A model generated the notes under the pieces. It searched no databases and was not told the DNA's origin. It was given only the letters and a program-made list of their open reading frames with translations. Source: an uncultured Eubacteriales bacterium (GTDB lineage Bacteria; Bacillota; Clostridia; Lachnospirales; Lachnospiraceae). Taken from it: a stretch of 64,000 nt of DNA. Shown here piece by piece: positions 31,385-61,600 of this stretch. The DNA is taken from NCBI GenBank assembly GCA_949292785.1, contig CASFBK010000006.1:220250-284249 (forward strand), in the 5' to 3' direction. Each line of letters starts with the position of its first letter. The stretch's first letter is position 1. The position numbers were made by a program, and so were the translations under genes.

Positions 31385-31717
31385 ATGGCAGACAGTATTC
31401 ACTGTGTAAAAAAAACGCTGCGGCTCATGCCAAAGGAAGCACAGCAGCTTTCGGAAAAAGCAAAGGAAGCGGGGATGTGCGAAGCGGATTACCTGCGGCT
31501 TCTAATCACACAAAAGCCGAATGATTACCCTGAAATCCGTATTCTTCTGCGTGAGTTAATCAATGAGGTAAATGCCATAGGGAACAATATCAACCAGATT
31601 ACGAGAAACCACAACTCAAAGCTGTACCGGAGTGAGGACAGGGAGCTTTTAACCGCTTATATGAAAAAACTGAACCTGTTAGTAAAGGAGGCGGTGGAAC
31701 AGATTGGCAATCAGTAA
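31385..31717 (+). CDS. mobC: Relaxosome accessory protein MobC
   Basis: RHH-like LRLMPKE...EADYLR; INAIGNNINQI motif; overlaps the relaxase start. Confidence 0.88.
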   Translation: MADSIHCVKKTLRLMPKEAQQLSEKAKEAGMCEADYLRLLITQKPNDYPEIRILLRELINEVNAIGNNINQITRNHNSKLYRSEDRELLTAYMKKLNLLVKEAVEQIGNQ

Positions 31718-35930: not shown

Positions 35931-38138
35931 ATGGTCCCTAAGAAGAAAAAATTATCCCTGTGGTTTGTGGTGATTGGAGCCATCCTTTCCGGCTATGCGG
36001 GGTATCTGTTAAACGGGGCATGGGAGCCGGGAGGGGATGTCAATTCCTTTCTGGAGTCCTTTAACCGGGTGTGTGCGGCGCCCTTTGGAAATTATTATAA
36101 TGAGAGAACAGTAAAAGCGATAGTCATTGCCTTAATGGTATATATGACCGCTTTACTTATGTATGCCACAAGCCAGAGAAATTTCCTGCCGGGCAAGGAG
36201 TTTGGTACAGCAAGGTTTGAATCCCCGCAGTTTGCCAATAAAATCCTTATGGACAAGGATGAGAATTTCAACCGGATATTAAGCCAGAACGTGAAAATGT
36301 CGCTGGATTTCAGGCGGTTAAAGCTGAATGGCAATATTTTAATCTGCGGCGGTTCGGGAGCCGGAAAGACCTTTTATGAGGTAAAGCCAAATTTAATGCA
36401 GATGCCCCATAACTGCTCTTTTATCTGTACCGATCCAAAGGGGGAAATACTCAGAAGCTGCGGACAGATGTTAAAGGACAACGGGTACAATGTCAAGGTC
36501 ATCAACCTGCTGGAGATGGAAAAGTCGGACTGCTACAATCCCTTTTCCTATCTGCGGGAGGAAACTGACATTGTAAAGCTGATAACCAACCTGATTTCCA
36601 ACACCACGCCAAAGGGGGCAACCCCTTCCGATCCCTTTTGGGAAAAGGCGGAAGGCTTGTTCTTACAGGCAATCTTTTACTATGTGTGGCTGGAGGAACC
36701 GCCTGCCAGAAGAAATTTTGAAACCGTCTTACAGCTTTTAGGGGAGGCAGAGGTGACGGAGCAGAACAACCCCTCCAGGCTGGACGTCCGCATGAAATTT
36801 TTGGAGGAAACTTCCCCGCTTGGTTCGGCACACCCGGCTGTCAAGCAGTACAACAAGTGTATGCGTGGTGCAGGTGATACGGTCCGTTCCATTATCATAT
36901 CGGCAAACTCAAGGCTTGCCTTTCTGGAGAATAAGCAGGTACTCCGTATGCTGTCAAAGGATGATTTAAACCTTGCAGAGCTTGGCATTGGGGTAAACGG
37001 GGACGGGGAGACAAAGACAGCGCTGTTCTGTGTCATACCGGACAGCGACAAATCCTACAACTTTATCATCGGTATGCTCTACACACAGATTTTTCAGGAG
37101 CTTTATTATCAGGCGGACTTTAACTGCGGCGGCAGGCTGCCAATCCATGTGACCTTTATGTTGGATGAGTTTGCAAACGTCGCACTGCCGGATGATTACT
37201 GTTCCCTGCTTTCCACCATGCGAAGCAGGGAGATTTCCAGTATAATCATTATCCAGAATTTCGCACAGTTAAAGGCTCTGTTTAAGGATACCTGGGAAAC
37301 CATACCCGGCAACTGCGATACCTTTATCTATCTTGGCGGCAACGAGCAGTCAACGCATAAGTATGTTTCCGAACTGCTGGGCAAAGGCACCATTGATAAA
37401 AAATCAAGCGGGGAAACGAAAGGCAGACAGGGAAGCTCAAGCCGCAATTATGATGTGCTGGGCAGGGAACTGTTTACACCGGATGAGGTAAGAAAGCTGG
37501 ACAATAAGAAGTGCCTTATCTTTATTCGTGGTTTTGATCCGATTATGGACAATAAATATGTTCCGTTCCGGCATCCGGCATTTTCCCAGACCGCAGACGG
37601 AAAAGGAAAGCCATATGTTCATGCTCCTTCCGGTCAGAAAGGGAAAACCGACGAGCCATACCGGATACTGTCACCCAAAGCATTAGCCTATTATGAGGGG
37701 TTGAAGGAAAAGGGGGAAAATGTGTATATTGATACCCTTTCCTATGAGGAGTTTGGTGTGCTGACAGAGCTGGATATGAGAAAGCGGTTTTTAAGCCTTG
37801 ATGAAAAAGAACAGAGGGAAAAGCTGCACCGGGAGGAAGAAAATGAATTGCAGTATGCACCGGAGGCAGACGAAGCAGGCGGGGAGCAGGACGCCAAACC
37901 TTCCGGCTCCGTATCAGGCGGCGGCAGACAAAAGCGGCAGCTTGTGGGCGAAGATACCATTATGAACCGTATGGCACAGTGGCAGTATTCCAAAGAGCAG
38001 AAAGAGGAGCTTCATAAGATGATGGCTCTTGGCATGACAAAGGCAGAAATACTTGCCATCTTCTACCCGGAAACAGATGTGGCGAAAATGCGGGAAATCA
38101 GGCGGACTTACCGGACAATTAAAAACAGGAAAGGTTAA
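35931..38138 (+). CDS. virD4: Type IV coupling protein VirD4/TraG
   Basis: GGSGAGKT, TDPKGE, MLDEFAN, IIQNFAQL, PDEVRKLD. Confidence 0.95.
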   Translation: MVPKKKKLSLWFVVIGAILSGYAGYLLNGAWEPGGDVNSFLESFNRVCAAPFGNYYNERTVKAIVIALMVYMTALLMYATSQRNFLPGKEFGTARFESPQFANKILMDKDENFNRILSQNVKMSLDFRRLKLNGNILICGGSGAGKTFYEVKPNLMQMPHNCSFICTDPKGEILRSCGQMLKDNGYNVKVINLLEMEKSDCYNPFSYLREETDIVKLITNLISNTTPKGATPSDPFWEKAEGLFLQAIFYYVWLEEPPARRNFETVLQLLGEAEVTEQNNPSRLDVRMKFLEETSPLGSAHPAVKQYNKCMRGAGDTVRSIIISANSRLAFLENKQVLRMLSKDDLNLAELGIGVNGDGETKTALFCVIPDSDKSYNFIIGMLYTQIFQELYYQADFNCGGRLPIHVTFMLDEFANVALPDDYCSLLSTMRSREISSIIIIQNFAQLKALFKDTWETIPGNCDTFIYLGGNEQSTHKYVSELLGKGTIDKKSSGETKGRQGSSSRNYDVLGRELFTPDEVRKLDNKKCLIFIRGFDPIMDNKYVPFRHPAFSQTADGKGKPYVHAPSGQKGKTDEPYRILSPKALAYYEGLKEKGENVYIDTLSYEEFGVLTELDMRKRFLSLDEKEQREKLHREEENELQYAPEADEAGGEQDAKPSGSVSGGGRQKRQLVGEDTIMNRMAQWQYSKEQKEELHKMMALGMTKAEILAIFYPETDVAKMREIRRTYRTIKNRKG

Positions 38139-41269: not shown

Positions 41270-41400
41270 GGACAACGGATAGCAGGTAAGAAGATACCGA
41301 CCTTTTGACGGTTGGCAATTCCGGTAGCAGGAGACAGTCTGCCATGCAGACAGTTTTGTTTAGCAGCCGGGATTGTCCGGCTGCGGAAAGAGAGGTCAAA

Positions 41401-44400
41401 TTGGGTTTATTTACAGATGGCTTTAAGGAACTGAAAAAAGCCAGCGAACCATTATATAAAACACCAAAATCCATACAGGAAACCATTGAGATTTTAAAGG
41501 TGGCAGAAAATGGTATCTTTGAAGTGGCAAAGAACCGCTTTTCAAAATGTTACCGTTTTCAGGACATTAACTATACCACCACGAATGAGGTGGAGCAGAT
41601 TGACATTTTTGAAAGGTACTGCAAGTTTTTAAATTCCCTGGATGTGTCCTTTAAGATTACCATTAACAACAAGAACAAGGACATGGAGCAGGTCAGGGAT
41701 TATGTGTTTTTGCAGGAGAAAGGGGACGGGTTTAACGGATTCCGCAAAATCTACAATGACATCATGGAAAAGAAAATCCATGAGGGCAGACAGGGGATTG
41801 AGCAGGAGCGTTATCTAACGATAACCATTGAACGGAAGAATTTTGAGGAGGCAAAGGCACAGTTTGCAACCATTGAGGCATCGGTACACAAAGCCTTTGG
41901 TGAGCTTGGGGCAGAGATTGTTCCCTTATCCGGCAATGAGAGAATCAAGGTTTTGTATGATTACTACCATATGGGAGAGGAAGGCAGTTTTGATTTTGAC
42001 ATCAAAGAAGCAATGAAAACCGGGGCAGACTTCCGCAATGATCTGGCAGGGGGCATGATACAGTTTTACCCGGACTATTATAAGGACGAGAAGAAGTATT
42101 GCAGGGCATTGTTCATCAAAAAGTACCCTTCCAGCCTTTCGGACCGTTTCCTGAATGAAATCACTTCCCTCCCGGTACACTCCATTACCAGCATTGATGT
42201 GGTTCCCATTCCAAAGGACATGACAACCAAAATCCTCCAGAAGAAATATCTCGGTATTGAATCGGACATTATCAAGCAGCAGAGGGTAAGAAACAAGAAC
42301 AATGATTTTTCCTCGGAAATCTCTTATAACAAGAGGATTGAGAAAAAAGAGATTGAGGAAATCATGGACGATGTGAGGGAGAATGACCAGTGTCTTTACT
42401 ATGTGGCAGTGACGATTATCCTCATGGCAGATACAAAAGAAGAATTAGACAGCATGATGGAAACGGTGGAAACCATCGGGAAGCGGAACTCCGTTACCAT
42501 TGAGGAACATTATCTGAAGCAGAGAGAGGCATTGAACACAGCGCTCCCTATTGGCGTCAGACAGGTGGAAACCATGCGTACCATGCTGACACAGAGCCTT
42601 GCTGTTTTAATGCCTTTTAACGTGCAGGAATTAAATGACGGTTCGGGGTGCTATTACGGTATCAATCAGGTGTCAAAAAACATCAACATCGGAAACCGTA
42701 AAAAGCTCATCAACGGAAACGGGTTCGTGTTCGGTGTTCCCGGCTCCGGCAAGTCCTTTTTCTGCAAAATGGAAATGGGCAATGTGTTTCTTGGCACAGA
42801 TGATGAGATTATCGTCATCGATCCCATGAATGGTGCGACACGTTGGCAACTGAAAAGGTTGTCCACTTATGCGTCGCTTTTATATAAAAACAATTAGCAT
42901 AAGGAGAACTAAATATGCGAAAAGTCAAATGAGAGGGTAACGCCTTGAAGGGCTTCCTTAATACTCCGACTGGCATGGAATAGGTAAATATGAAGTGTCA
43001 GAAGCTCGGTGAAGTCGGCAGAAGCATACCGAAACATTAAGTTGTCGAAAGGTTCCCAGAGGTGGGAGTTGTATGTGATATGCCGGAGGTCTATAAAATA
43101 CCTATGGTTAGAATGGAATAGAAGCTGATGAGTACAGCTAAAAACTGACGAATCCTCGAATGTACAGGTCTATATCGGGATGTGGTCGAAAGGTCATGTG
43201 ACACAATTAGTGTCGTTACTTGTGGATGAGTAAAAATCGTTCATATGAAAGTCCATACAATGTTACAGGCATTGGTAAAGTAACAGGCTTATAGAGGAAA
43301 CCTAAGGGTATATGTAAAGATAGCATATTTGGAACGTGGAAAGCTGGCAGCATGGAGATTTTACCATCTGTGAAGTGTTTACAGGGAAAAACTATGTGAG
43401 ATTAGCATAGTTATAACCTGTATTTATGTCAGTGAGAGTGGTGGCACAGTACCGATGAAACTATGATAATAAGTGGTGGAGGGATAGCCACTAGTCGTGT
43501 GCTAGAGCAAGCAGAGAGTTCAGCATGGGTTCGTGTAAGACTAAGAGATGTATTACTCTGAAAGGAGGGTACAGACCATGTTGAAGAAAGACAAGCTGAG
43601 ATATAACGAATATTTTGATATGCAGAGCATATTTGATGAGTTGTATCAACAAAGCAGAAACAACAATAATTTTTACAAGTTAATGGAGGTAATAGGTTCA
43701 AAGCAGAATATCAGATTAGCATACAGGAATCTGAAAGGTAATACTGGTAGTAAAACCAAAGGTACTGACGGAAAGACAATAGAGGATATTTCCAAACTCA
43801 ATGATGAAATGCTGATAAAGGAAGTGAGAGCCAGATTAGAGGACTATAAGCCATTACCAGTGCGTAGAGTATATATTCCAAAGCCTGGCAGTGATAAAAA
43901 GAGACCTCTTGGCATACCGACCATATGGGACAGACTGATTCAACAATGCATTTTGCAGGTGCTAGAACCCATATGCGAGCCGAAATTTCATAATCATTCC
44001 TATGGATTCAGACCAAACAGAAGTACCCACCATGCAGTCAGCAGAATGGTAAGCCTTATCAATTTAGGCAGACATTATTATTGCGTTGATATTGATATTA
44101 AAGGATTTTTCGATAATGTCAATCATGGGAAACTGATGAAACAAATCTGGAATCTTGGAATCAGGGATAAAAGGCTGTTGTGTATTATAAGCAAACTTTT
44201 AAAGTGTGAAATCGAGGGCGAGGGAATACCGACAAAAGGAACTCCGCAAGGGGGAATACTTTCTCCGTTACTATCTAATATTGTGTTAAATGAACTTGAC
44301 TGGTGGATAAGTGACCAATGGGAAACTTATATGCCACGAAAGGGAAATAACAAAGGTTTTGCAAGCTATGCCAGACAGTACACAAATCTGAAAGACGGAT

Positions 44401-46441
44401 ATATTGTGCGTTACGCAGATGACTTTAAAATAATGTGCAGAACATATCCAGAAGCACAGAGATATTACCACGCTGTAGTAGATTTCCTAAAGAACAGGCT
44501 GGGATTGGAAATCAGTCCTGAGAAGTCTAAGGTAACAAATTTGAAAAAGAATTCATCAAATTTTCTTGGATTCAAAATCAAAGCAGTGCCACAGGGAAAA
44601 TCGAAGTATGGTTATGTTGCAAAAACAGACATGTGTGAAAAAGCCTTGAAGAAATCAAAAGCTAATTTGAGACAGAAGATTCTTGAAATACAGAATCATA
44701 CAAATGCAGAGGAAGTAAAGAAGTATAACAGTGCAGTCATTGGAATACAGAATTACTATCGGATAGCAACGAATGTTTATAACAATCTCACAGAGGTTGA
44801 TTATGCTTTATTACGAACCCGTATCAACAGGTTAAGGAAGAAAGCAAAAATAGTCAGATTTTGTGAAACTCCAAGCGATTTCAAAAAGAAAACAACAGGA
44901 ATCAGAGACTGTAAAAAGATTTACAGAATTATGGATATTCATATGTTGCCTATTACAGGAGTGCATCATAAATCTCCCATGAATTTTTCGCAGGAGACAT
45001 GCAATTATACCGAAAAGGGCAGAAAGAAAATTCATAATAATCAGAGAGCAGTGGAAAGCAGTAAATTGAAAGCATTTCAGATGGTTCTAAATGATGAAGA
45101 TACTATTGAATTTAGAAATAATATGGTTTCAAAATTCGTGGCACAGTATGGGAAATGTTACATTACTGGAAATGAATTAGAGCCAGAAAATGCAGTCGGT
45201 ATCAGAATAAAACCAAAAGAAAGAAATGGTACTGACGATTATAGCAATATAGTTATTGTTAGCAAAGCTGCCATTCCACTTATTGAAGATATAAATGCTG
45301 ATTACTGTAGTAACCTTTCGGAAAAGCAGAAAGTGAAGCTGAATCGACTAAGACGAGCTAGAAAACTTAAACCTGTCAAAGGAACTTGTAAACTTGCTTG
45401 AACACGAGGGAACGCCGTATGCGGTGAAAGTCGCACGTACGGTGTGAGTCGGGGGAAAAGCTGGAGATAATTTCAAAGGCTTACCTATCGACATAGTATT
45501 TTGACATTGCCGCAACCTATGAGGGAACGGTGGTAAATATGTCAACTTATACGGACAACTATGTGAACCCGCTGGATATGGATGTCTGGAGTCTTGACTT
45601 AAATGACAGCAGGGGCATGATTCGTGAAAAGGGAGAATTTATGCTCGGTCTTTGTGAGCAGTGTATGGGAGAGAGCCTTAATTCAAGGCAGAAGTCCATT
45701 ATTGACCGCTGTGTGAGAAAGCTGTATATTGACATTGCAAGAAGCAGGGAGAAGTTTGTTCCGGTCATGTCTGATTTTTATGAGATTTTAATGAACCAGC
45801 CGGAGGAGGAGGCAAAGGACATTGCCCTTTCCTTAGAGCTTTTCGTCAACGGTTCCTTAAATATCTTCAACCACCAGACCAACGTGGATGTGGATAACCG
45901 TTTTACGGTCTATGGGATTCGTGACTTAGGTACGGAGCTTAGTCCGATTACCATGCTTGTTATGATGGAGAGCATACAGAACCGCATTATTGCAAACGGA
46001 AAGCGGGGCGTGGCAACATGGCTGTATATTGATGAGTTCCATGTGCTGCTTAATTCGGAATACTCCGCAAAGTATTTACAACAGCTTTGGAAGAAAGTCC
46101 GTAAGCAGGGCGGTCTTTGCACAGGCATCACCCAGAATGTGGTGGATCTTTTGCAGAATTACACTGCAACCACCATGCTTGCCAACTCTGAGTTTGTGGC
46201 ACTGTTAAAGCAGGCAAATACGGACAGCTCAAAAATGGCAGAAGTCATCGGCGTATCGGAGGCACAGCTTCGGTTTGTGACAAATACCGCAAGCGGCATG
46301 GGACTGATGAAATGCGGCAATGTGATTATTCCTTTTGACAATCAGATTGAAAAGGGAACAGCTTTGTATAATCTGTACAATACGAATCTGCACGAGAAAA
46401 TTGCCTTAGAAAAAAGTAAAAATGCAGTTGACAATGGATAA
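41401..46441 (+). CDS. virB4: VirB4-like conjugative ATPase split by a group II intron (exons 41401-42832 and 45495-46441; 792 aa spliced)
   Basis: Walker A GVPGSGKS; joined exons read IDPMN-E-YFDIAATYEGTVVNMS; Walker B LYIDEFH in exon 2; TTG start after AGAGAGG. Confidence 0.92.
42833..45494 (+). mobile_element. Group II intron (probably bacterial class B) in virB4
   Basis: 5' GTGCG; domain V GAACGCCGTATGCGGTGAAAGTCGCACGTACGGTGT (~45410-45445); 3' ...TTACCTATCGACAT; removal restores the frame. Confidence 0.95.
43578..45401 (+). CDS. ltrA: Intron-encoded reverse transcriptase/maturase
   Basis: [36 protein letters not shown], degenerate HNH; AAAGGAGG RBS. Confidence 0.96.
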   Translation: MLKKDKLRYNEYFDMQSIFDELYQQSRNNNNFYKLMEVIGSKQNIRLAYRNLKGNTGSKTKGTDGKTIEDISKLNDEMLIKEVRARLEDYKPLPVRRVYIPKPGSDKKRPLGIPTIWDRLIQQCILQVLEPICEPKFHNHSYGFRPNRSTHHAVSRMVSLINLGRHYYCVDIDIKGFFDNVNHGKLMKQIWNLGIRDKRLLCIISKLLKCEIEGEGIPTKGTPQGGILSPLLSNIVLNELDWWISDQWETYMPRKGNNKGFASYARQYTNLKDGYIVRYADDFKIMCRTYPEAQRYYHAVVDFLKNRLGLEISPEKSKVTNLKKNSSNFLGFKIKAVPQGKSKYGYVAKTDMCEKALKKSKANLRQKILEIQNHTNAEEVKKYNSAVIGIQNYYRIATNVYNNLTEVDYALLRTRINRLRKKAKIVRFCETPSDFKKKTTGIRDCKKIYRIMDIHMLPITGVHHKSPMNFSQETCNYTEKGRKKIHNNQRAVESSKLKAFQMVLNDEDTIEFRNNMVSKFVAQYGKCYITGNELEPENAVGIRIKPKERNGTDDYSNIVIVSKAAIPLIEDINADYCSNLSEKQKVKLNRLRRARKLKPVKGTCKLA

Positions 46442-46456
46442 TTCTCATGTTAGATT
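46428..46456 (+). promoter_or_regulatory. Sigma-A/70 promoter at the 3' end of virB4
   Basis: TTGACA (46428-33), 17-bp spacer, TG-n-TAGATT (46448-56). Confidence 0.8.
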
Positions 46457-46460
46457 ATAG

Positions 46461-46640
46461 GTAATGAAAAGCTTGAGTGCTTTTGCGGCGACAGAGAGGA
46501 GCTACCCGTCCCGACTTTGCGGGCAATAGAAATACAAAGAAGCTCTCTGCCTATGGAGTAACATAGGACCTGCTCCCAGAATTGCAATTCAAATGAAAGA
46601 AAAAATTAGCCTGGGCTTAATTGCTCAGGCATTTTTCTTC
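46461..46640 (+). ncRNA. Putative structured small RNA ending in an intrinsic terminator
   Basis: No ORF; hairpins 46467-84, 46492-46549 (with inner 46505-23) and 46550-67; terminator GCCTGGGC/GCTCAGGC plus T-run. Confidence 0.55.
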
Positions 46641-46676
46641 TATGAATGAAATAAGGAACCGGAGAGGAATTGACGG

Positions 46677-47531
46677 ATGGCAAATCAAAAGTTGTTGGAA
46701 GTCTTTTTGAATACAAAAAGGATATTATGTGCGAGTGATTATTACATCCATATACCCAAAAAGATTATCCATGTGACAAATTCAGAAAATATGATACCAC
46801 ATTTAATGGGAATGCAATATGTAGGCAGACCGGATATGTTCACAGGAGACAGGGGAGTGTATATGATAAAGAAAGGGCGGTTAAAGTATCATTCACTCGA
46901 AAAATTGGTAGGGAAGTATTATCGTGGTAAGAGCAAGCAGGATTCTATACTTGCTATGGTAAATGGAAAAATAGATAACCTGTATCGTATTGAAGATATG
47001 CTTTCAACTTATTCGGAGTTATATTTATATGATGTCGCTGCAAATCCTGAATCAGAGTTAAAGACAGATTATCTGTTAGTTCATCAGCTAGACGACAGAG
47101 TATTGCAATTAGGTATGATAAAGGTAGATAAGAAAAAGATACAGGAGTATCATTGTAATTCTTTTATGGTAGATTATAAGGAAAATGATGATTATGATTT
47201 GCATTACCGAAATCTGACACAGCGCTATGAAATAAGCAGGATTGTTCGTGAGGATAAACAGACAAAACGCTCTCAGGTTATTTATCAGAGTAATAGCGCA
47301 AAAGAGAGGGAAATGGCAGGCATTGAAAAAATGCTTACAAATGCCGAAATAGCAGCAAATGTTGGTATTATGAAAGCTATTTTCCGTCTAAATGAAAGAT
47401 TTGGCGTGTATCATACAATGGAAATGCTGTCAAATTCTGTGCAGCTTTTGGAAAAATGCAAGGATAAGAGAGATGAAGCATTGGTAAAAGATTTTCTCAT
47501 GCAATGGGAGAAAATTACAGATGGCATATAA
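46677..47531 (+). CDS. PBECR4-like (BECR-fold) putative endoribonuclease (AT-rich cargo)
   Basis: N-terminal 'IHVTNSENMIPHLMGMQYV' resembles the F/IxHLxG signature of PBECR4; GGAGAGG RBS. Confidence 0.55.
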   Translation: MANQKLLEVFLNTKRILCASDYYIHIPKKIIHVTNSENMIPHLMGMQYVGRPDMFTGDRGVYMIKKGRLKYHSLEKLVGKYYRGKSKQDSILAMVNGKIDNLYRIEDMLSTYSELYLYDVAANPESELKTDYLLVHQLDDRVLQLGMIKVDKKKIQEYHCNSFMVDYKENDDYDLHYRNLTQRYEISRIVREDKQTKRSQVIYQSNSAKEREMAGIEKMLTNAEIAANVGIMKAIFRLNERFGVYHTMEMLSNSVQLLEKCKDKRDEALVKDFLMQWEKITDGI

Positions 47532-47754
47532 GCAGGAATTGTGGGAAGAGGCAAAGAAAAAATGTCATTTAGGAGAGGAAGAAATCCGTATGGCAAAAGA
47601 AATGGGGCTAAACCTTAAAAGCCTGATAAAGAATATTCCAAGCAAAAAGGAAATGTGGAAAGCTCCTGTAAAGGACCGGATTCATGAGATGTATGAGAAA
47701 AGAATGAAAAAATCAAAGCAGAAAGAAAAATGGAAAGAACAGAATAATCAGTAA
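47521..47754 (+). CDS. 77-aa basic hypothetical protein
   Basis: LWEEAKKKC...MAKEMGLN.KSLIKNIP; overlaps the nuclease gene end. Confidence 0.7.
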   Translation: MAYKQELWEEAKKKCHLGEEEIRMAKEMGLNLKSLIKNIPSKKEMWKAPVKDRIHEMYEKRMKKSKQKEKWKEQNNQ

Positions 47755-47760
47755 AGTCAC

Positions 47761-47797
47761 AGCATCTAAGCTAGACAGGTTTAGGTGCTATTTTTTT
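47761..47797 (+). terminator. Terminator after the nuclease cassette
   Basis: AGCATCTAAG...TTTAGGTGCT followed by T7. Confidence 0.65.
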
Positions 47798-47823
47798 GCT
47801 CTTTTGAAAGGCAGGTGAGAGCA

Positions 47824-49827
47824 TTGAACATTAAAAAGGTGGATGACAAGCCGATGGTCATTCATACAAAGGAAAAAGCGAAGCTTCATGTGAAAGCTGC
47901 CCCGGAAACCAAAATCAAGGGCAGGAACGTTCTTGTTGTGGAGAGGAAGCCGGACAATGTAAAAGCCGCAAAAGCAGAAAAAAGAAATCCGGCGGATCAA
48001 AGGGCGGCGGCATTGAAAATAAAGTCTGCCAGAAAGGAGGCAGGGGGAAAAGTAACCGCTGTAAGCAGAGGCGGCTCTGTGGCAGACAGGAGAAAGTCGG
48101 TAAAAGAGGAAACAGAAAAGTCCCTACAAAGGGAAAACAGTGCCTATGCCAAAAGGAAGCAGTCCCTTCCCCAGCAGAAAGCAAAGCAGGACAGGGAAAA
48201 AGCCATCGGCAGGAAAACAGAAACCACAGGTCTTGCCCTCTCGGTTGGTGCAAAAACCGCATTAGACCAGATGGAGGGTGGGAATGAAGTTTATGACTCT
48301 TATATGGCAGCCAGAAATTTGTCCCGTCCGGTAGAAAGTGCGGCAGAAGCAGGAAGAAGGCTGTACCGTACACAGGCAGCCAAAGCAAAGGAACAGCGGA
48401 TTAAGAAGATACAGGCAGGAAAGAAAATCGGCAAAAAGACGGTAAAGGACACCTCTGCAAAGGCTGCAAAGGAAACTTCCAAAGCAGCGGCAAAGAAAGC
48501 GGCAAAAGAGACTGCAAAAGGAGCAGCCAAAACAGCGGCGGCAGCGGCAGGCACAGCAGCCGGAACAGCCGGGACAGGTCCGGGCGGTATTTTAATCGGG
48601 GCGGCAGCCGGGGAAGCGGCTGGCATTGCCATAGACAGAAAAGATGTGAAAAATTCCACCAGAAACCGTATGATACAGCTCTTTGTAGCAAAAATGTGGC
48701 AGGAGGAAAGTCAGGACAGCGTGGCAAAAGCCTTAAAGGATGTTGCCCTGATGCGGTTTTCCATGCTGGCAAAATATATTGTCCGGTATGTGGGAATGTT
48801 TCTGCTGATTCTCTTTGCACTGGCTGCACTGGTGGCACTGCCGATTATTGCGGTCATTGCCATTATTTACAATTCCCCCTTCGCCATCTTTTTCCCGTCC
48901 ATTTCGTCAGGGGAAACCACGCAGGATGTATTGTCGGCGTATGTGGCAGAGTTTAACCGGGAGGTCAATGGGGAGCTTGCGGACCATTCCGGGTATGATA
49001 CCAGCGAAAAAATCTATGCGGATTTTGAGGGAGCCGGCACACCGGACAATTACTGCGACATACTTGCGGTGTATATGGTGAAATACGGAAACGGGGATAC
49101 TGCAACGGATATGACGGATAAGGCAAAGCAGAACCTGAAATCGGTCTTTGACGATATGTGCAGCTATTCCATCAGCCACAGAACCGATACGGAGACGGAC
49201 AATGAGGGTAATACCACAACCACGACGGTAAAAGAGGTCAATATCACATTAAAGAGATGGCAGGACATGATTTCTGTCTACGGATTTAATGCAGAAGAAC
49301 AGGAAATGCTTGCGGAGCTGATGAAACCGGAATATCTCGCCATGTTAGGCTATACGGGCGGAGGCGGCGATCCCGGAGAAGCATTAAGTCCGGAGCAGTA
49401 TCAGGCGATTGTGGATGCCATTTCCGATGCCAACGGGAAAAAAGTGGTGGAGTTTGCCCTGTCAAAAGTAGGCTATCCGTACAGCCAGAAGTACCGGGAC
49501 AGCGGGGATTATTTTGATTGCAGCTCCCTTGCCTATTACGCATGGAAAAATGCAGGGGTAAACATCATGTACGAGGGAGCGAATACAGCCGCAGCCGAGG
49601 GGAAATTCTGCTACGACAATAACTGGCTCGTCAATTACGACGAAATGCAGCCGGGAGACTTAATCTTTTATAGTTACAGCAATAACGGAAGGTTTTTCAA
49701 TATTACCCATGTGGCAATTTATGTGGGCAATGGCATGGTGGTGGAAGCCGCCAATGAAAGGATTGGTGTTGTGTACCGTCCTGTGCAGAGTAAGTCCTCC
49801 ATTGTCTTTATCGGCAGACCGAGATAG
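47824..49827 (+). CDS. VirB1-like cell-wall hydrolase, C-terminal NlpC/P60 (C40)
   Basis: Lys/Ala-rich N-terminus; TM segment; GYPYSQ...FDCSSL...QPGDLIFY...HVAIYVG. Confidence 0.9.
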   Translation: MNIKKVDDKPMVIHTKEKAKLHVKAAPETKIKGRNVLVVERKPDNVKAAKAEKRNPADQRAAALKIKSARKEAGGKVTAVSRGGSVADRRKSVKEETEKSLQRENSAYAKRKQSLPQQKAKQDREKAIGRKTETTGLALSVGAKTALDQMEGGNEVYDSYMAARNLSRPVESAAEAGRRLYRTQAAKAKEQRIKKIQAGKKIGKKTVKDTSAKAAKETSKAAAKKAAKETAKGAAKTAAAAAGTAAGTAGTGPGGILIGAAAGEAAGIAIDRKDVKNSTRNRMIQLFVAKMWQEESQDSVAKALKDVALMRFSMLAKYIVRYVGMFLLILFALAALVALPIIAVIAIIYNSPFAIFFPSISSGETTQDVLSAYVAEFNREVNGELADHSGYDTSEKIYADFEGAGTPDNYCDILAVYMVKYGNGDTATDMTDKAKQNLKSVFDDMCSYSISHRTDTETDNEGNTTTTTVKEVNITLKRWQDMISVYGFNAEEQEMLAELMKPEYLAMLGYTGGGGDPGEALSPEQYQAIVDAISDANGKKVVEFALSKVGYPYSQKYRDSGDYFDCSSLAYYAWKNAGVNIMYEGANTAAAEGKFCYDNNWLVNYDEMQPGDLIFYSYSNNGRFFNITHVAIYVGNGMVVEAANERIGVVYRPVQSKSSIVFIGRPR

Positions 49828-52608: not shown

Positions 52609-55600
52609 ATGGGAGTGGATAACCTGGTAAGCCGGCTTTACGATGCCGGCATGAAGCAGGTGGTGTCGGATGAAGCAAACTGGAAAAGCGTCTGCCGCCT
52701 GACTGGAAGGCTGTACCGTTATGAGTTTGACAACATTCTTATGGTATATATGCAGCGACCAAACGCAACGCTGGTGGCAGACTATGACACATGGAAGGAT
52801 GCAAGAGTTGGCAGATATGTAAAGCGTGGCAGTAGAGGAATCGCAATCTTTCCGTCCAGAGCCTTAAAACCTCACATGAGGTATGTGTTCGACATCAGTG
52901 ATACAGGCGGCAGAAGCAGCCGCCTTACATGGGAGCTTGATGAGAAAACAAGGAAAGCCTATGCCGCATATTTAGGCAGGGAAAATGAGGAAGGAAAAGA
53001 ATCTGCGGAAACTTTCTTAAAAGACTTTACAGAACATCGAATCGGAGTCATAATGGACTCAGAGTTCGGGGACAGAATAACCGAGCTTGCCCATTTAGCA
53101 GGAACGAAACGAAGATTGGTAGATGATAAAACGCAAGAGATTACGGCAGGGGAAGCGTTAAAAAGAAGTGTGGTGTATGCGGTATTCACACGATGCGGCT
53201 TTGACCTTTCCCCTGAAAAACAAGACTTTTCTTTCATTACCGCCTTTCAGTCGGAAGAAGAAGTCTACCGTTTAGGATCACTTGTAAGCGATATATCCTG
53301 TGAAGTTTTAAAAAGCATTGCAAAAGAATTAACGCAGATGGAAAGGAGTATTGCTTATGACAGAGCTGTTACAGTACAAAGAGGCGGAGGACGGGATGCT
53401 GTATCCCGACCTGACGCTGCCGGAGGAGAAAGTGACCATGACGAGCCTCGGCAGGTTCGCAGTGAGGGCGATGGAATACCTGAAGGAGAACCACAGGCAG
53501 AGGTATCAGACCTTAGTGAGATTCGGGAAGTTAGCGGAGAAGATGCAGGAAGTGGAGGAAGAAGCCTACCGGATGATGGAGGTGCTGGAGCAGGATTACC
53601 TGAAAAAGAACCCGCCGAAGAATCCGCAGTCCACGATGGAGATGTGGCAGTTAAGGGAGCAGGCGAGGATGCAGGCAGAGGAAATCGTGATGACGGAAAT
53701 CGTGCTGAAATTCCACTAGAGGAAGATAAACAGCGGCAGGAACAGTTAAATAGTGAAATCAGCCGGGAGCTTGAGGAACTTGAGTCTCTTGGCAGAACGG
53801 AAACAGGAAGCTACGAACAGGCTTCCTTTTCTTTTGCCCAAAATGGGGATATAAAGATACCGGAAAAATTTCGTTACCAGAAGCCGAAAACGGAGCTGAC
53901 CGTTCCCCATGATTATATCCGGCAGGTACTGTTAAAAGGCAGCGGATTTTCCCAGGGCAAACGCAGGATATATGGAATCTTTGATACGGTGTCCGATCCG
54001 GAGGAGCGTATCAAACGGATAAAGAAGGAATACGGACAGGGCGGTGCAGGCTGGCCCGTTGACGGGTACGGACTGCATGGTTATGACACGATTCATGGGA
54101 AAGGGATACGGTTTCAGTGGCGTGATGAGGAAGGCGAAAAGGAAGGGTATTTAAGCTGGAAGTCAGTGGAGCAGGAATTAAGCGCCCTGATACTGACAGG
54201 GGAATACTACCAGCCGCCAAAAGCATTTGATGCAGATGTGGTGTCAGCGGCTTTGTGGCAGGAGCCATTGGATGAGTTTTTCAATAAAGGCTTCTGGCAG
54301 AAGCTTCCCAACATTGCCCTAAAGGAAGTGCTTGGTAAGGACTATCCGGAAAGCAGCAAAATACAGTTTGTGGAGAGAGTATTCCAGAAAGGTATGTTTT
54401 CCTTTAGCACAGGCAGTCATTTCAGGAATGAATTTGATGACTGCGAAGTGGAGCGGCACGATTGGGGCATTTCCGTAGAGTTTTATGATGAGAAGAAAAC
54501 AAAGTGGAGAACCGAGCTTGGCTGGAGGGAATGTACTGCCTATCTGGAGAGCATGGTTGCCGACGGGGTATACGAAACGTCAGAGGAATTTGATAAATTC
54601 CTTGAAGTGGCAGAGAGCGAAAGCAGGGTAAGCGGCATAACAAGTTTCAGAGACGATACCTTAAATTTCCTGACCGATACAGCAGAGGAACACCAGCAGC
54701 ATCGTGTTGAATTAGTGGAGCGTATCTTAAAGACCGTAGGCAGGGAAGATATTGAGGTTGCCTGGAATGACACTTACGATGTACTTCTTGCAGGGGACGG
54801 AGAGCATTTATGGCATGGGAAAGCTGCCTATGACTATATCATGGAAAACTGTCTGGAACTTGATTCGTTTCATCGTGATAAGCGTATCTATTTTGCAGAC
54901 ATGGCACAGTTTCAGCATGATGCGGCTGCAAGCATTGACTTAACCAAAGAGAAATTCATCCGCAGGAAAACCTTTGTGACGGTGGATAAGTCCGGGGAAG
55001 AAATAAAGCAGCAGGAAGAAAAGCTGTGGCAGGAGGCTTTAAAGCAATACTTCAATGAGGAAATTCAATATATCTCCGTAAAGACTCTGCTGTATGACAT
55101 CTTTACCACCAACCTTGATTTCAACAGCAAAGCAGAGTTTCTTGCCTCTGTTTATGGCGAGGAAAGGGCAGATATTGTCATGACTGATAAGGCAGACGGA
55201 CCTTACGGGGAAAGCCTTATCACAAGGGATCAGGAAGGCGTGACGGTATCCTACCAAAAGCCGGACGGAACAAGGGGAGAGCGTAAAGCGGATTACCGAT
55301 ATTGTGCCTCCTTAATTCTTCACATGATTGAGGAGAATGATTATCTCTCGGAGGAAGTGTTTGAACGGTTTCGGATAAGCCCGCAGTCCTTTCAGGCGAG
55401 CCCTGCTTTTATGGAGATTTACCATGAGTACAAAGAACGTATGCGGATGGAGCCGGGCTTTGCAGCGATTGAGCCGGAAGAATCCGAACAGATAGAGTCG
55501 AAGGAAATGCAGACCGAGCCGGAGGAAGCACAGGCAGAGCAGACGGAAAGTATCGAAAAGGTGGAGGGAGAAATCCTAGACAAGAATGGCAATGTGATAA

Positions 55601-58600
55601 AGCCTGTTTCCACAGCAGCCTTTCCGCAAGCCTTAGAGCAGGTGGAGGCAATGGAGGAGGATTTGCGGGAGGCGCTGGAGATTTACCTTCAGGGATGTTC
55701 CGCAATCAGACCGTTCCAGCCTTTTTTGCAGATGGCAGCAAAAAGTGATCTGCCAAAGGCAGACAAGCTCTACTTCCTCAACCGTATCGTCAATCATTAC
55801 AAAGGCGGGGAAACCTGCGAGGCATACCATAATAATGCCTACGGACTGGTTGCATATATCTGCAATTCAGATACCTTTATGGTGGATTATAAGAACCGTC
55901 AGGGAGAGAGAAACAGGGTATCCGTAACCTATGAGCAGATATACAGTGTCATGGAGTACATTATCCGGGCTGGAAGGTTTACGGACAATGTCCGCATGGA
56001 AAAATATGAGAAGGAGTTTGCCCAAACGCCATATGAGAAGAAGAGTCCCCTTGAAAAGCAGTTTTCTGACAAGCTGCAAATTCGGAATGCCAGAAAGGAA
56101 AGGGAAAACTTCCGTTTTGAAACAACAGAGCTGCCAAAAGCAGGACCAAAAACAAGGTATCAGTGGAATGTGGAAGCAATCCGTCTGATGAAGCAGGTCG
56201 AATTTGAAAACCGTACCGCCACGCCGGAGGAGCAGAAGATACTTGCAAGGTATGTGGGGTGGGGCGGCATTCCGCAGGCGTTTGATGAAAGAAATGATAG
56301 CTGGAAGAAAGAATATGAAGAATTAAAGAGCCTTTTATCACATTCCGAATATGCCCAGGCAAGGGAATCGGTCAACACAGCTTTTTACACGCCGCCGGAA
56401 ATCATTGAAGCGGTATATCAGGGACTTTCCCGGCTGGGATTTCAACAGGGGACAGTCCTTGAGCCTGCCGCCGGCGTCGGTCATTTCTTTGGAGCCATGC
56501 CGGAGGATATGCGTGGGAGCAAACTCTACGGTGTGGAAAAGGACGATATTTCGGGAAGGATTGCAAGGCTTCTGTATCCAAAGGCACAGATTAAGGTTGG
56601 AGGGTTTGAGGAAACACAGTTCCCGGATAACTTTTTTGATGTGGCGGTAGGAAATGTCCCTTTTGGGGACTTCAAGCTGTACGATCCGAAGTATGCAAAG
56701 CACAACTTCCGTATTCACGATTATTTCTTTGCGAAAGCACTGGATAAGGTCAGACCGGGCGGCATTGTGGCATTTATCACAAGCAAGGGGACAATGGATA
56801 AAGCAAACTCATCCGTCCGTAAATATCTGGCAGAGCGTGCCGAGTTAATCGGTGCGGTCAGGCTTCCAAATACTGCTTTCCGGGACAGTGCGGGTACAGA
56901 CGTCACCAGCGACATTCTCTTTTTACAAAAGCGGGAGCAGAAAACCGTTGCAGAGCCGGACTGGGTACATTTAGGACAGACTGAGGATGGCATTGCAGTC
57001 AATTCCTACTTCGTGGAACACCCGGAGATGATGCTTGGAACAATGGAATATGATTCCAGGATGTTCGGCAATGAAAGCAGATATACAAGCTGTATCAACC
57101 ATGACGAGAACTTTGATTTACCGTCAGCTCTTTCACAGGCAATATCCCGTCTGGAGGGACAGATTACGGACGTCATGGAGCTTACGGATTCGGAGAAGGC
57201 GGTGCAGGATATGATAGACGCCGATCCGGATGTGAAGAATTACACCTACACCTTTGTGGACGGAAAGCTCTACTACCGGGAAAACTCCAGAATGTACCGG
57301 AAGGAGGTGTCAGCGGTTATGGAGGAGCGAATCCGGCTGATGGATGAAATCCGTACCGTCACAAGGCAGCTTATTTTTATACAGACGGAAGGGTGCAGCG
57401 ATGGGGAATTAAAATTCCAGCAGGACCTTTTAAATGAAAAGTACGATGCCTATGTGAGAAAATTCGGTCCGATTACGGGAAGGGGAAGCCGGCAGGCATT
57501 TCAGGACGATGCGGACTATCCGCTTTTATGCTCCTTAGAGGTTGTGGATGAGGACGGAAATGTCAAAAAAGCGGATATGTTCCATAAACAGACCATCCGA
57601 GCCAAAAACCAGGTAGACCGGGTGGAAACCGCAACGGAGGCGTTGAATGTATCGGTCAGTGAGTTTGGTACGGTAAACATCCCCTTTATGTTAAGCATCT
57701 ATGAACCGGACTTGAAAAAGACAATGGAGCAGCTACCGGAGGGAAGCACACTGTCAGCGGATGCCGAGGTGGAGCTGAAAAGAGAAGTGCTGATAGAGGA
57801 GCTGGCGGGACTGATTTATCTTGATCCCACAGAGTACAATGAAAACAACATCAATGCCGGGTGGAAAACCGCAGACGAATATTTATCCGGCAATGTCCGG
57901 GATAAGCTGCACATTGCCAAAGCCTATGCGGAGGAAAACGGGGAACTGTTTGCCGCCAACGTGCAGGCGCTTATGCAGGTGCAGCCGAAGGATCTGGACG
58001 CATCGGAAATCGAGGTGCGGATTGGAACCACATGGATTGAACCGGAGGATTATGAGCTGTTTCTCTATGAGCTGCTTGGCACACCGAATCGTGCAAGGGC
58101 AGTCAGAAGCTCCTATTACAGCTCCGGCATTCAGGTTAAGTATAATGCCTATGGTCAGAACTGGTTTATTGAGAACAAATCCCTTGACAAACGCTCCGTT
58201 GCAGCGACAAAGACCTATGGTACAGACAGGATAGATGCCTATTCCATTATGGAGGAAAGCTTAAACCTGTGTACCGTAACGGTCCGGGACCGGATTGATG
58301 ACGGGGACGGAAAATTCCATTATGAAGTCAATAAAAAGGAAACCATGCTGGCAAGGGAAAAGCAGAACCAGATCAAAGAGGCGTTCAAGGCTTGGATATT
58401 CAAGGATCAGGAACGCAGGCAGAAGTATGTGGATTATTATAACAATACCTTCAACTGCATCCGCCTTAGAAGCTATGACGGTTCTTTCCTTACCTTCCCC
58501 GGCATGAACCCGGAAATACAGCTCAGGGAACATCAGAAAAATGCGGTTGCCCGTATCCTGCTTGGGGGAAACACCCTGCTTGCCCATGTGGTGGGGGCGG

Positions 58601-61600
58601 GAAAGACCTATACCATGATGGCAGCCTGCATGGAGCAGAAACGGTTAGGGCTTGCCAACAAAAATGTCATTGTTGTGCCAAAATCCTTAATCGGACAGAC
58701 CGCCGGGGAGTTTTTAAGGCTGTACCCTTCCGCCAATATCCTTGTGGCGACGGAACGGGATTTTGAAAAAAGCAGGAGAAAGCAGTTTATCTCAAGGATT
58801 GCCACCGGGGACTATGACTGTATCATCATGTCCCATTCACAATTCGAGAAAATCCCCATTTCCAGAGAGCGTAAAGAACGGATGTTAAATGAGCAGATAC
58901 AGGAAATCTCCTATGCCATAGAGGAAATCAAGGAGCAGAACGGGGAACGGTGGACGGTAAAGCAGATGGAAAGCCAGAAAAAGAAGCTGGAGGAACAGTT
59001 AAAGGCATTGTCTGACGAATCCAGAAAAGATGACCTGATCTGTTTTGAGGAGCTTGGCATTGATTCCATCATGGTAGACGAAGCACATCATTTTAAGAAC
59101 CGTACGAAACGTTGTTTCATAAGGTAGGACTGACAATCTTACCGAAACAGACCAACAGAAATCACTTAGCAATAAGAATGAACTGTTGAACTTAAATCTC
59201 AAATTCAAGGGGGAAGTACCCTTGCCACACAGAATCAACACCGATAATGGTAAGTCAAAACCGTAGGTGGTGTGCGAGATAATACTTCACTATGCGAGGT
59301 GGCTGTATCCACCCACGTATAAAGTGTGAAGAAGTCGTAACTTGATGTCCTAAGTCCTACGGGATACGGAATATATAGTGCGGTCTTCCGAAAACTATGG
59401 TTACACGTAGAAAAAGCTATGCAGCATCGTAAGAGTTGACGGCGTCTGAAAGGACGAAAGATTAGGAAAGAATGTATTGCTGGTTTTTCAATACATTCCT
59501 GTGCGGCTGAAATATCGTGCAGAACACACAGTAACTATGATTCAAAGTGTGTTTGTTCCTACGGTGTAAGGTAGCAACCTAAGGTTTTCAAGTAGTTAAA
59601 TCTACAAAAGGATAGAGATTTAGGAACGTTTGAGAGCCTGTATTGGAGCTATACAGGGTGAAGAAGATACAGGAAGTCAGCAGTCCCATAGTAGTCTGAG
59701 ATTGGGAAAGCCAGTCACACAGGCTGAAATGCCTATGGCGAAGGGGACTAGTCAGACTAATTTACAAATTTCATAAAACAAGAAAAGAATAACTCCCTGA
59801 AATATGGGTGACGAACTGCGAGGTGATAGCCTTGTGCATTTGAACGTCAGATTTTCAACAGAAGCGGAATTAAAGCAGACATTAGATTTCCTTTATGAGA
59901 AATCAAAAGAGGGAATCGCTTTTACAGGTCTTGTTGAAGCAATGGTAAATGAAGTTACCATTGTTACCGCAATTCATAACATTAAGTCGAACAAAGGCAG
60001 TAAAACGGCTGGAGTAGACCAGATGAAAATGGACAAATATCTGCAAATGCCAAGAGATGAACTAATTGCACTGATAAGAGATAATTTCAGTAATTACAGA
60101 CCAAAACCAGCAAGACGGGTATATATCCCCAAAAAGAATGGAAAACAACGCCCACTGGGTATTCCAACAGTTTTGGACAGAATCATACAGGAATGCATGA
60201 GAATTGTCATTGAGCCTATATGCGAAGCAAGATTTTATCCGCACAGTTACGGATTTCGTCCGTACAGGGCACAAAAACACGCAATCAGAGACATTATAAA
60301 TGTCATTAATGCTTCTACCTACTCACAAGACCAGCCTGTATGGGCAATCGAGGGGGATATAAAAGGCTGTTTTGACAATATCGACCACAGAATCCTGTTG
60401 CAGAAAATATGGCGTATTGGAATCCATGACAAAAGGGTAATTAAGATAATACAGCAGATGTTAAAGGCTGGGTATATAGAAAGTGGTGTCATGAACGACA
60501 CGAAACTCGGTACAATGCAGGGCGGAATTTTGTCGCCATTGCTGTCAAATGTGTATCTAAATGATTTTGACTGGTTTGTAGGAAGAATGTATATGGAACC
60601 CCACAGGCAATGTAAACACAAGTGTAATGATACACGACGGTTGAAATGGTCGGGAGTAACTCCAAAATACAATTTCCGTTTTGCTGATGATTGGGTAATC
60701 CTCACATCAACGGAACAGGAAGCATACAGATTAAAACGTGTGCTGACAAAATATTTTAGAAATAAAATGAAGCTGGAATTATCACAGGAAAAGACGTTTG
60801 TAACAGACCTTAGAACAGAGGGAATCCATTTCCTCGGTTTTGTGGTCAAAGCAGAGAAAAAGAGGAAAACCCCCAACCCAAGAACTTGGACGGAAAATCT
60901 GGTAGGGAAACCTTTACCAGACATGGAGCGATTGAAAGATAAAATACAAAAGATTGCTGATGAAGTCCGAGTAATTGGAGAAATCACAGAAAGGAGCGTA
61001 CAGGCGGCACAAATACAGCGTGTAAATTCCATGATAGTGGGATTGGCACAGTATTTACAACCCTCAATATGTTCTCATGCGTTCCATGCCATAGACAGAA
61101 GAATCAACAATACAGCATTGGCGGTATGGAAAAAGAGATTTCCAAAGCATTACAACAAATATCAGATACCATTGGAAAAACTTTGTAATCTACCGCACAG
61201 GCATGAGGGATATAAAAGTAAAACATTTGCTGTTCCGATTGAGGGAGAATGGTTTGGAATTACTTATGCATTTATCACGCATAGTAAATATGAAAGCAAG
61301 CCATTTGACCAACGCATGACACCTTACACAGAGGAGGGCAGACGGATTTATAGCTATTACCGTAGCAAAAGTAAGCCTCTCCCCTGTGACAGACCGTCAG
61401 TTAATACCACAAGAGATATACAGCTTTCGGTCTATGCAAAGACAGTATTTAATTTTGAATACTTCATGAATAGGGAATATGCGTACAACAGGGATAAAGG
61501 CAAGTGCAAATGCTGTAAGAAACCACTATTTTTAGAAAACAAAAAGTATTGTTATCACATCAAAGGGGAACTTCCGTTAGAAAGAGTAAACAAAGTGCAA

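Follow-up and report, generated by a model that had tools for sequence, protein, structure and literature searches.

Organization of the PBECR4 cassette

The window analysed here, a 64,000-nucleotide (nt) stretch of the genome of an uncultured Lachnospiraceae bacterium (GenBank assembly GCA_949292785.1, contig CASFBK010000006.1, positions 220,250 to 284,249), contains a conjugative element and, within it, a short cassette in which the gene for a structured non-coding RNA precedes an open reading frame (ORF) for a PBECR4-domain protein, a putative toxin. The cassette lies between the genes for a VirB4/TraG-type ATPase and an NlpC/P60 hydrolase (47785-49827, its 3′ flank), is AT-rich (34-39% G+C, against 44-52% in the flanks) and runs, on the plus strand throughout, from a promoter through the RNA gene and an intrinsic terminator to the PBECR4 ORF (46677-47531, 284 amino acids (aa)), which has no evident promoter of its own. 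Composition, location and layout are as a preliminary description of the sequence had them. An RNA gene directly upstream of a putative toxin gene on the same strand, both served by one promoter and with an intrinsic terminator between the two, is also the arrangement of type III toxin–antitoxin (TA) systems. A second intrinsic terminator, which the terminator scan placed at ~47761-47797 (12-bp stem, then a T-run), ends the cassette immediately ahead of the hydrolase gene.

The promoter (46428-46456) is of the sigma-70 type and, as first described, near-consensus: the promoter scan gave 10/12 matches plus the TG, with a -35 hexamer TTGACA at 46428-46433, a 17-nt spacer and an extended -10 element TGtTAGATT at 46448-46456. 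It overlaps the stop codon (46439-46441) of the upstream VirB4-type ORF. The transcript inferred to start at ~46463 and to run to the end of the terminator is ~176 nt long, not ~130 nt as originally estimated. That terminator (46609-46640) consists of an 8-bp stem with six of eight pairs G-C and a 6-nt loop (46609-46630), followed by a U-run in the RNA; it was identified by the terminator scan, and its stem covaries between loci (GCCUGGGC/GCUCAGGC versus GCCUGAGC/GCUCAGGC and others). The promoter scan found no promoter-like site in 46631-46676, and the PBECR4 ORF must be transcribed by terminator read-through.

Conservation among type A loci

Loci with the same RNA type as the window (type A) came from two sources: a protein-seeded scan of species-representative genomes, which gave 16 Lachnospiraceae loci, and a DNA-pattern scan of metagenomes, which gave 79 stretches with ~64 true copies. 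In all, 80 loci could be oriented, with the RNA ~95-100% conserved among them, and they contain 41 distinct RNA cores (114-118 nt). Across 61 distinct regions, which also underlie the other nucleotide conservation values given here, the RNA region 46463-46590 is 93-100% conserved; within the core, the P1 loop, the P4 loop together with a short junction on its 3′ side, and a patch of 4 nt (46540-46543) depart from this (helices are named below). The promoter hexamers are similarly constrained (97-100%), as is the terminator stem (90-100%, with G-U, A-U and A-C variation), whereas the promoter spacer (31-79%), the linker and the 5′ untranslated region (UTR; 16-49%) together span 16-79%, and the PBECR4 protein downstream has 44-97% identity to that of the window. 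With a near-invariant core beside a variable spacer, 5′ UTR and protein, the RNA stands out as an island of purifying selection whose controls lie in the same loci.

The linker between core and terminator (46579-46608) is variable, although it contains a perfect 12-nt palindrome, GAATTGCAATTC, at 46579-46590, directly after the RNA core, that is 89-100% conserved in most type A loci and missing or replaced in four (L005, L016, L024, L033). This palindrome may serve for dimerisation of the RNA or as an operator in the DNA. In several loci (L005, L009, L013, L023, L038) the linker is interrupted by inserted hairpins. One such hairpin of ~35 nt (CTTATTGAACATTAGTAGTTCAATAAG-like) is shared by the unrelated loci L009, L013, L023, L038, L069, L070, L081 and L086, where it sits after GCUCCCA, between RNA core and palindrome; L005 carries a different hairpin, placed inside the palindrome.

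The one hypervariable patch of the RNA, 46540-46543, reads AAGC, GUCG, UCAU or UUAG; with one exception its variants and those of the P4 loop (46556-46561) follow the protein clades. Two loci (L071 and L076) differ in the patch although their proteins are near-identical, a sign that the RNA and protein parts of the cassette may have recombined with each other. In three further loci (L050, L057, L090) a piece of the RNA core (GCTACCCG...AAGAAGCT) is fused to mid-PBECR4 coding sequence in what looks like the remnant of a deletion. Searches of plasmids and phages with DNA and protein gave no match, and pattern scans of IMG/VR for type A and for type B (see below) gave no copy.

Structure of the RNA core

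The conserved core of the RNA spans 116 nt (46463-46578; covariance model match 144 bits), and comparison between loci supports a predicted fold of four hairpins and two pseudoknots that join hairpin loops to sequences on their 3′ side. Specifically, the hairpins are P1 (46467-46472/46479-46484), P2 (46485-46488/46506-46509), P3 (46510-46513/46520-46523) and P4 (46550-46555/46562-46567). The P3 loop (46515-46519) would pair with 46535-46539 as CUUUG:CAAAG to form the first pseudoknot (PK1), across an A-rich, AAAUAUACA-like junction at 46524-46534, while GGAGC in the P2 loop (46498-46502) would pair with GCUCC at 46572-46576 to form the second (PK2). Among 36 distinct type A cores, a model of P1, P3, P4, PK1 and PK2 has 98.7% paired cells, and three pairs are changed on both sides, a number equalled in 0/500 shuffles; the compensatory variants are UUUUG/CAAAA and CCUUG/CAAGG in PK1 and CCUGUG/CACAGG in P4. 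RNAalifold independently picked the GGAGC/GCUCC pairing, P1, P3 and P4. A single-sequence fold only modestly beats shuffles (z -2.24, compared with -1.45 for the minus strand), so the case for structure rests on the comparison between loci.

About half of the helices proposed in the preliminary description, and its pseudoknot, are wrong. The AAAAGC/GCUUUU and CCUAUG/CAUAGG hairpins are real and conserved (P1 and P4, the latter with compensatory changes), and the proposed CCCGU/GCGGG helix is better drawn as two helices, GCGG/CCGU (P2) and CCCG/CGGG (P3). The AGCU/AGCU helix is not kept, its 3′ strand being UCGU, UCAU or UAGU in many loci without compensation. The suggested pairing of GGAGU with GCUCC fails as well: the P4 loop that would supply GGAGU is free to vary (GGAAUUAU, GAAGU), and GCUCC pairs instead with the invariant GGAGC at 46498-46502. 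Likewise, CAGAG/CUCUG occurs in type A only, has uncompensated mismatches and lacks a counterpart in types B-D; in its longer form, CAGAGA/UCUCUG, it is mismatched in L007, L014 and L065 and would cross PK2.

Other possibilities for this region were considered and rejected. Two short reading frames cross it, a 21-codon ORF from 46465 on the plus strand and a 45-aa ORF on the minus strand (46450-46587), but core lengths of 114-118 nt differ by non-multiples of three, and the plus-strand stop codon TAG is changed to TAC or TAT in some loci, so that the region is non-coding. Mimicry of a tRNA anticodon loop or of the sarcin-ricin loop, judged by eye, is not supported: the loop CUUUG covaries with its partner instead of being fixed, and the GAGAGGA match lacks the structural context. 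Each locus has one core, and Tandem Repeats Finder reported no array in 46300-47900, in line with the earlier statement that the RNA is not a tandem repeat. The window RNA had no match in Rfam 15 at E<=10 (including abiF, ToxI, riboswitches and ribozymes), and at E<=1 there was none in type B or C loci or in L098, L101 and L103-L106, type D being outside that scan. Neither the covariance model nor a pattern search found a second complementary site in the window.

Distant relatives share the arrangement

A scan of 1.84 billion representative proteins returned 122 matches, mostly fragments, and in addition a few distant full-length relatives; the subfamily is small. In every distant relative that was fetched, the ORF is directly preceded by a sigma-70-type promoter, a non-coding RNA and a terminator, at positions equivalent to those in type A. 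Three further RNA types can be distinguished: type B, in Clostridium baratii and five metagenomic loci with proteins of ~280 aa; type C, a single instance (L099, protein of 324 aa) in which P2 and P3 overlap; and type D (L109-L115), with short canonical PBECR4 proteins called at 179-242 aa (about 185 aa). Types B and C are recovered by the type A covariance model (E 1e-5 to 1e-9), which in type D hits the correct place weakly (8 bits).

The four types share one predicted order of elements: P1, P2 with its loop entering PK2, P3 with its loop entering PK1, the A-rich AAAUAUACA-like junction, P4 and the 3′ strand of PK2. The pairs that would fill this order differ widely. P2 is GCGG/CCGU in type A, GUGGUUG/CAACCAU in B, AGUAC/GUACU in C, and CGGUGCG/CGUGCCG, CGGUGUG/CACGCCG or UGGUGCG/CGUGCCA in D; PK2 is GGAGC/GCUCC in A and B, GGAAGC/GCUUCC in C and GAAUAGC/GCUAUUC in D; P3 is CCCG/CGGG in A, UCCG/CGGA in B, CUCC/GGAG in C, and UCCC/GGGA or UCCU/AGGA in D; and PK1, which in type A takes the three forms CUUUG/CAAAG, UUUUG/CAAAA and CCUUG/CAAGG, is CUUG/CAAG in B, CCU/AGG in C, and UCCG/CGGA, UCUG/CAGA or UCCAG/CUGGA in D. 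P4 is formed by ten different hairpins across the 16 loci tabulated. Because MAFFT mis-registers P4 (and P3 in L115), these pairs come from manual segmentation checked against the loci. The strength of the case for the predicted fold is this identical order in independent subtypes, together with the compensatory changes within a type.

Some of these loci have features of their own. In L099, ~470 nt of AT-rich DNA with direct repeats separate the RNA terminator from the PBECR4-like ORF, and several of these repeats (TTTTCACTATAG/TTTTTACTATAG, at 2770-2840 of that locus) are iteron-like. In L115, a second promoter-like site (TTGACA...TATAAT) and a G+C-rich structured repeat stretch including GTGTTGGCGGGCAACGGAAAAC and GTGTTGGCGGACAACCGAAAAA lie at ~780-1010, 5′ of the PBECR4-associated RNA. 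Two gene calls, P0279 (301 aa; L103, 482-566) and P0270 (242 aa; L115, 1201-1340), start within the RNA/terminator region; their true starts are likely further downstream, so that proteins of this family in databases can bear spurious N-terminal extensions.

The PBECR4 protein

Membership of the protein in the PBECR4 family, as first suggested, is established by Pfam (PF18813, E 4.6e-15, 56.9 bits against a cutoff of 27), and all close homologues carry the same annotation; a BECR fold and ribonuclease (RNase) activity are predicted. The PBECR4 domain covers residues 6-205 and is followed by a helical C-terminal domain (~206-284), a division also seen in an AlphaFold2 model (mean confidence score, pLDDT, 91.3) with an alpha/beta part from residue 1 to ~205. 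Searched with Foldseek against BFVD, this model matched two uncharacterised phage proteins (E 7e-6) and PolyVal proteins (probability 0.95). Among solved structures in the PDB, Foldseek gave no significant match (best E 0.09), so that the expected BECR fold was not recovered, and a sequence profile gave no match there either. PADLOC and NCBIfam gave no match, and the only Pfam match is PBECR4, not ToxN, CptN or TenpN.

PBECR domains are predicted RNases with an active site formed by a His in the N-terminal helical region and a C-terminal Ser/Thr, and they occur both within polyvalent proteins and as solo genes in elements with type IV secretion systems (T4SS) (PMC5512222). Two residues of the window protein, H42 in an ExxIPHLMGxQ motif and S162 in a CNSF motif, are invariant, and the motifs recur in distant members; assigned by eye, they are predicted to be this His and Ser/Thr. 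Type A protein clades are only ~50% identical to each other in the N-terminal domain, although the adjoining ATPase in the same loci can be 90-98% identical, and the C-terminal ~90 residues are mosaic between clades (L021 and L071 are nearly identical there and ~51% identical in the N-terminal domain). The backbone of the protein is thus conserved and the protein diversifies or recombines on it, whereas the RNA remains fixed.

Co-occurrence of RNA and protein

The preliminary description had its candidate system depend on homologues keeping an upstream RNA, and they do: the RNA is present in 27/27 protein-ascertained loci with enough upstream DNA (16 of type A, 7 of type B or C, and 4 distinct loci of type D). 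The converse does not hold. Where at least 1150 nt of downstream DNA is available (64 type A loci, mostly found by RNA pattern and with redundant copies included), PBECR4 is intact in 33, frameshifted, internally deleted or truncated in ~20-24 (four of which may be shorter intact variants) and absent in 7, so that in about 4 in 10 RNA-ascertained loci the protein gene is broken or missing. Orphan RNA genes (L043/L095, L059, L065/L068) keep promoter, core and terminator; in L065/L068 the terminator has been replaced outright and a compensated PK1 change is present. Helix-breaking changes are found in the decayed loci L014, L016 and L059. The co-occurrence of RNA and PBECR4 is asymmetric, as expected for a toxin needing its antidote.

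The minimal conserved unit comprises promoter, RNA, terminator and PBECR4, and the pair is mobile as one unit. It lies within T4SS operons in the window and in L004, L022, L029, L037, L047 and L088, and alone among housekeeping genes in L003, L006, L007, L036 and others, while the distant types (B-D) are located in defence islands and mobile elements, next to type I restriction-modification genes, Abi_2, DarT/Macro, recombinases and ArdC-N/LPD25 polyvalent genes. In the window, a Lys/Glu-rich ORF of 77 aa (47521-47754) overlaps the PBECR4 stop by 11 nt; it had no match in Pfam, PHROG, NCBIfam or PADLOC. This ORF is found in a minority of loci and is absent beside intact PBECR4 in L003, L004, L007, L021, L033 and L036, and because it is missing from many loci with intact PBECR4 we reject it as an obligatory neutraliser.

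Relationship to known systems

The ToxIN, CptIN and TenpIN systems share with this cassette the order of promoter, RNA, terminator and (here putative) endoribonuclease toxin and the pseudoknotted character of the RNA (PMC8860590, PMC5772629). In those systems the RNA is in excess, and they are carried by mobile elements with abortive-infection or addiction roles (PMC8860590, PMC5772629). In contrast, their RNAs are ~34-36-nt tandem repeats cut by the toxin, and the toxin has a ToxN-type fold, whereas here there is a single 116-nt core and a PBECR4 domain. With neither repeats nor a ToxN-type toxin, the cassette is not a member of the classical type III families, though it may work like them.

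Single-copy RNAs paired with non-ToxN toxins have precedents in AvcID (PMC10511110) and AbiF/RCd22 (PMC12373285). AbiF(Cd)/RCd22 of Clostridioides difficile also has a structured, non-repeat RNA 5′ of the toxin gene, a terminator between them and a location on a mobile element of Clostridia (PMC12373285), and there RCd22 acts in cis to reduce expression of the toxin and in trans to neutralise it, binding it directly (PMC12373285). That toxin, however, is of the Abi_2/AbiD/F type rather than PBECR4, and the window RNA matches neither the Rfam abiF family nor any other and is predicted to form four hairpins and two pseudoknots. AvcID likewise has a single-copy small RNA (sRNA) antitoxin beside a non-ToxN toxin and is activated on transcription shut-off (PMC10511110); it differs in that its toxin is a dCTP/dCMP deaminase and not a predicted RNase, and in its unrelated RNA. 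By analogy, the likeness to ToxIN would be one of layout, and AbiF/RCd22 and AvcID appear closest in having a single structured RNA.

On the protein side, Iyer, Burroughs, Anand, de Souza and Aravind (2017; PMC5512222) described PBECR domains in polyvalent proteins of phages and conjugative elements, which belong to the same PF18813 family and agree with the PolyVal structural matches above. They predicted injected effectors acting against host or CRISPR RNAs and mentioned no RNA gene or TA-like organisation (PMC5512222). A link between PBECR4 and an RNA was found neither in Rfam, defence-system models or solved structures nor in the literature searched. The RNA family is new: a double pseudoknot of 110-130 nt with four sequence subtypes, outside Rfam.

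Interpretation and alternatives

We hypothesize that the cassette is a type III-like module of RNA antitoxin and RNase toxin, or an abortive-infection system, whose balance is set by terminator read-through, and we give this reading a probability of roughly one half. It is supported by the layout, the purifying selection on the RNA, the compensated fold and the asymmetric co-occurrence, and further by the facultative nature of the 77-aa ORF (which leaves no constant protein partner), the genomic context, the PBECR4 motifs and the presence of the RNA region in metatranscriptomes (below). Toxicity and RNase activity of PBECR4, direct binding by the RNA, an inhibitory rather than activating action of that RNA and the biological role of the pair are inferred. 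In such a system, the near-consensus constitutive promoter would yield an abundant structured RNA of ~176 nt ending at the intrinsic terminator, while occasional read-through would yield PBECR4 mRNA, leaving the RNA in excess over the protein. The RNA would bind PBECR4, a predicted metal-independent His/Ser endoribonuclease, and hold it inactive; once RNA synthesis stopped or the RNA decayed, free PBECR4 would cut cellular RNA and cause growth arrest or death. Element loss, transcription shut-off and phage attack are possible triggers, and the outcome might be stabilisation of the conjugative element, defence of the population, or both.

If this is true, PBECR4, so far a named but uncharacterised predicted RNase family of phages and conjugative elements, acquires a partner, a means of control that is open to testing and a probable part in element addiction or abortive defence, and a new toxin fold and a new RNA fold join the RNA-neutralised toxins (ToxIN, CptIN, TenpIN, AvcID, AbiF). 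Conjugative elements of this kind, which carry the module in their transfer operon, are abundant in Lachnospiraceae of human and animal guts, and the module may affect their persistence.

Several points weigh against it. Toxicity and RNase activity of PBECR4 are predictions (PMC5512222), and the structural model has no significant PDB match, solved BECR nucleases included (Foldseek best E 0.09). The RNA lacks tandem repeats and the putative toxin is unrelated to ToxN, CptN and TenpN. The minimal helix architecture occurs in 1-22% of shuffles of any single sequence, so there is some danger of over-fitting in the helices drawn by eye for types C and D. The metatranscriptome evidence consists of assembled contigs at a depth of ~2-40, without transcript ends or strand information, and could include DNA. 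Moreover, the asymmetric co-occurrence would arise equally if the RNA were an obligatory cofactor. Finally, the type A RNA barely changes while the N-terminal domain of the protein falls to ~50% identity; simple coevolution of RNA and protein would not predict this, and either the binding surface or active site must be conserved or a third party must impose the constraint. A near-invariant RNA beside a fast-diverging protein is a feature worth pursuing by itself.

The RNA might instead be an obligate cofactor and not an inhibitor: as a subunit of a PBECR4 ribonucleoprotein with a structural, activating or targeting part, it would be required for folding, activity or target finding by the nuclease. 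PBECR4 is never found without the RNA in the 27 loci, the fold is kept across the whole family including the short 185-aa forms, and an RNA far more constrained than most of the protein would suit a scaffold with many contacts or the recognition of a conserved target; an excess of RNA over protein is compatible with this too. We nevertheless think it unlikely. A variable guide of useful length is missing, the only candidate being the 4-nt patch, which does not strictly track the protein (L071 versus L076); orphan RNA genes that keep promoter and terminator seem to serve no purpose once the protein is gone; and PBECR domains function inside phage polyvalent proteins, where no such RNA is expected (PMC5512222), and the phage and viral collections searched gave no copy of the RNA. 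In a bolder form, for which the odds appear equally low, a near-invariant RNA subunit or substrate mimic would define a new class of RNA-dependent BECR nucleases, all solo PBECR4 proteins being ribonucleoproteins. The RNA would then be an active-site decoy of a universally conserved cellular RNA, or would license or target the nuclease, which would explain a fixed RNA beside a diversifying protein.

We have more doubt about a purely cis-acting leader, a riboswitch or a protein- or RNA-sensing attenuator that controls read-through into PBECR4 and has no function in trans. The RNA has the constant position of a leader, on the PBECR4 strand and 5′ of the gene, from which it is separated by a terminator but no second promoter; the RNA is compact, pseudoknotted, highly conserved and in this respect aptamer-like; and in L104 the 3′ half of the terminator stem includes the Shine-Dalgarno sequence. 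An attenuator, however, should couple its sensor to the terminator by a conserved alternative pairing with constrained spacing, and here the linker varies in length and sequence and accepts whole hairpins, the terminator has been swapped in L065/L068, and no antiterminator pairing common to the subtypes was seen by eye or in minimum-free-energy folds, a comparison that was not exhaustive. Orphans retain promoter, core and terminator with no gene left to regulate, and no Rfam riboswitch matches.

It is very unlikely that the RNA is an independent regulatory sRNA that belongs to the mobile element and controls conjugation or host genes through base-pairing or titration of a protein, with PBECR4 as a hitch-hiker. 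Its own strong promoter and terminator and the persistence of orphan copies would allow this, and the conserved 12-nt palindrome and single-stranded A-rich segments offer possible interaction sites, but the pairing with PBECR4 holds in four RNA subtypes and in unrelated contexts, many of them non-conjugative, which is unexpected for a regulator of conjugation, and the searches above found no second complementary site in the window. Least probable is a DNA-level element (an origin, a recombination or integration site, or a single-strand promoter), as the conjugative setting and the perfect palindrome after the core might suggest, since conservation tracks RNA pairing on one strand, where G-U pairs and compensatory changes occur; the minus strand folds worse (by the z-scores above), and a conserved promoter and terminator bracket the core in one fixed orientation to PBECR4 in every locus.

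Metatranscriptomes and neighbouring genes

Many gut metatranscriptomes, of human, bovine, pig and rodent origin, have contigs that contain the RNA region, and some contigs end near 46651; these show presence of the region and nothing more. Runs X2 and X3 (46466-46643) carry a divergent variant with ~19-20 differences, mostly transitions (for example 46496 G>A, 46499 G>A, 46505 C>T, 46507 C>T and 46510 C>T), and no similar variant occurs among the fetched loci.

The conjugative element of the window encodes a MobA/VirD2 relaxase (31704-33176) and a coupling protein (35931-38138), and it also encodes an MT-A70 methylase and a giant methylase/helicase protein. The VirB4/TraG-type ATPase gene that precedes the cassette is read as two ORFs (41305-42897 and 45530-46441), being split by a group II intron (~42898-45494) with a reverse transcriptase/maturase ORF (43548-45401). 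Rfam matches to this intron cover group-II-D1D4-5 at 43000-43097, clipped at the start of the search range, and domain V/VI at 45410-45494. Further downstream, an RVT_1 ORF (59804-61711) lies between the 2172-aa methylase/helicase ORF (52609-59127) and a Helicase_C ORF (61808-63835), and probably marks a second group II intron interrupting one giant SNF2/methylase gene.

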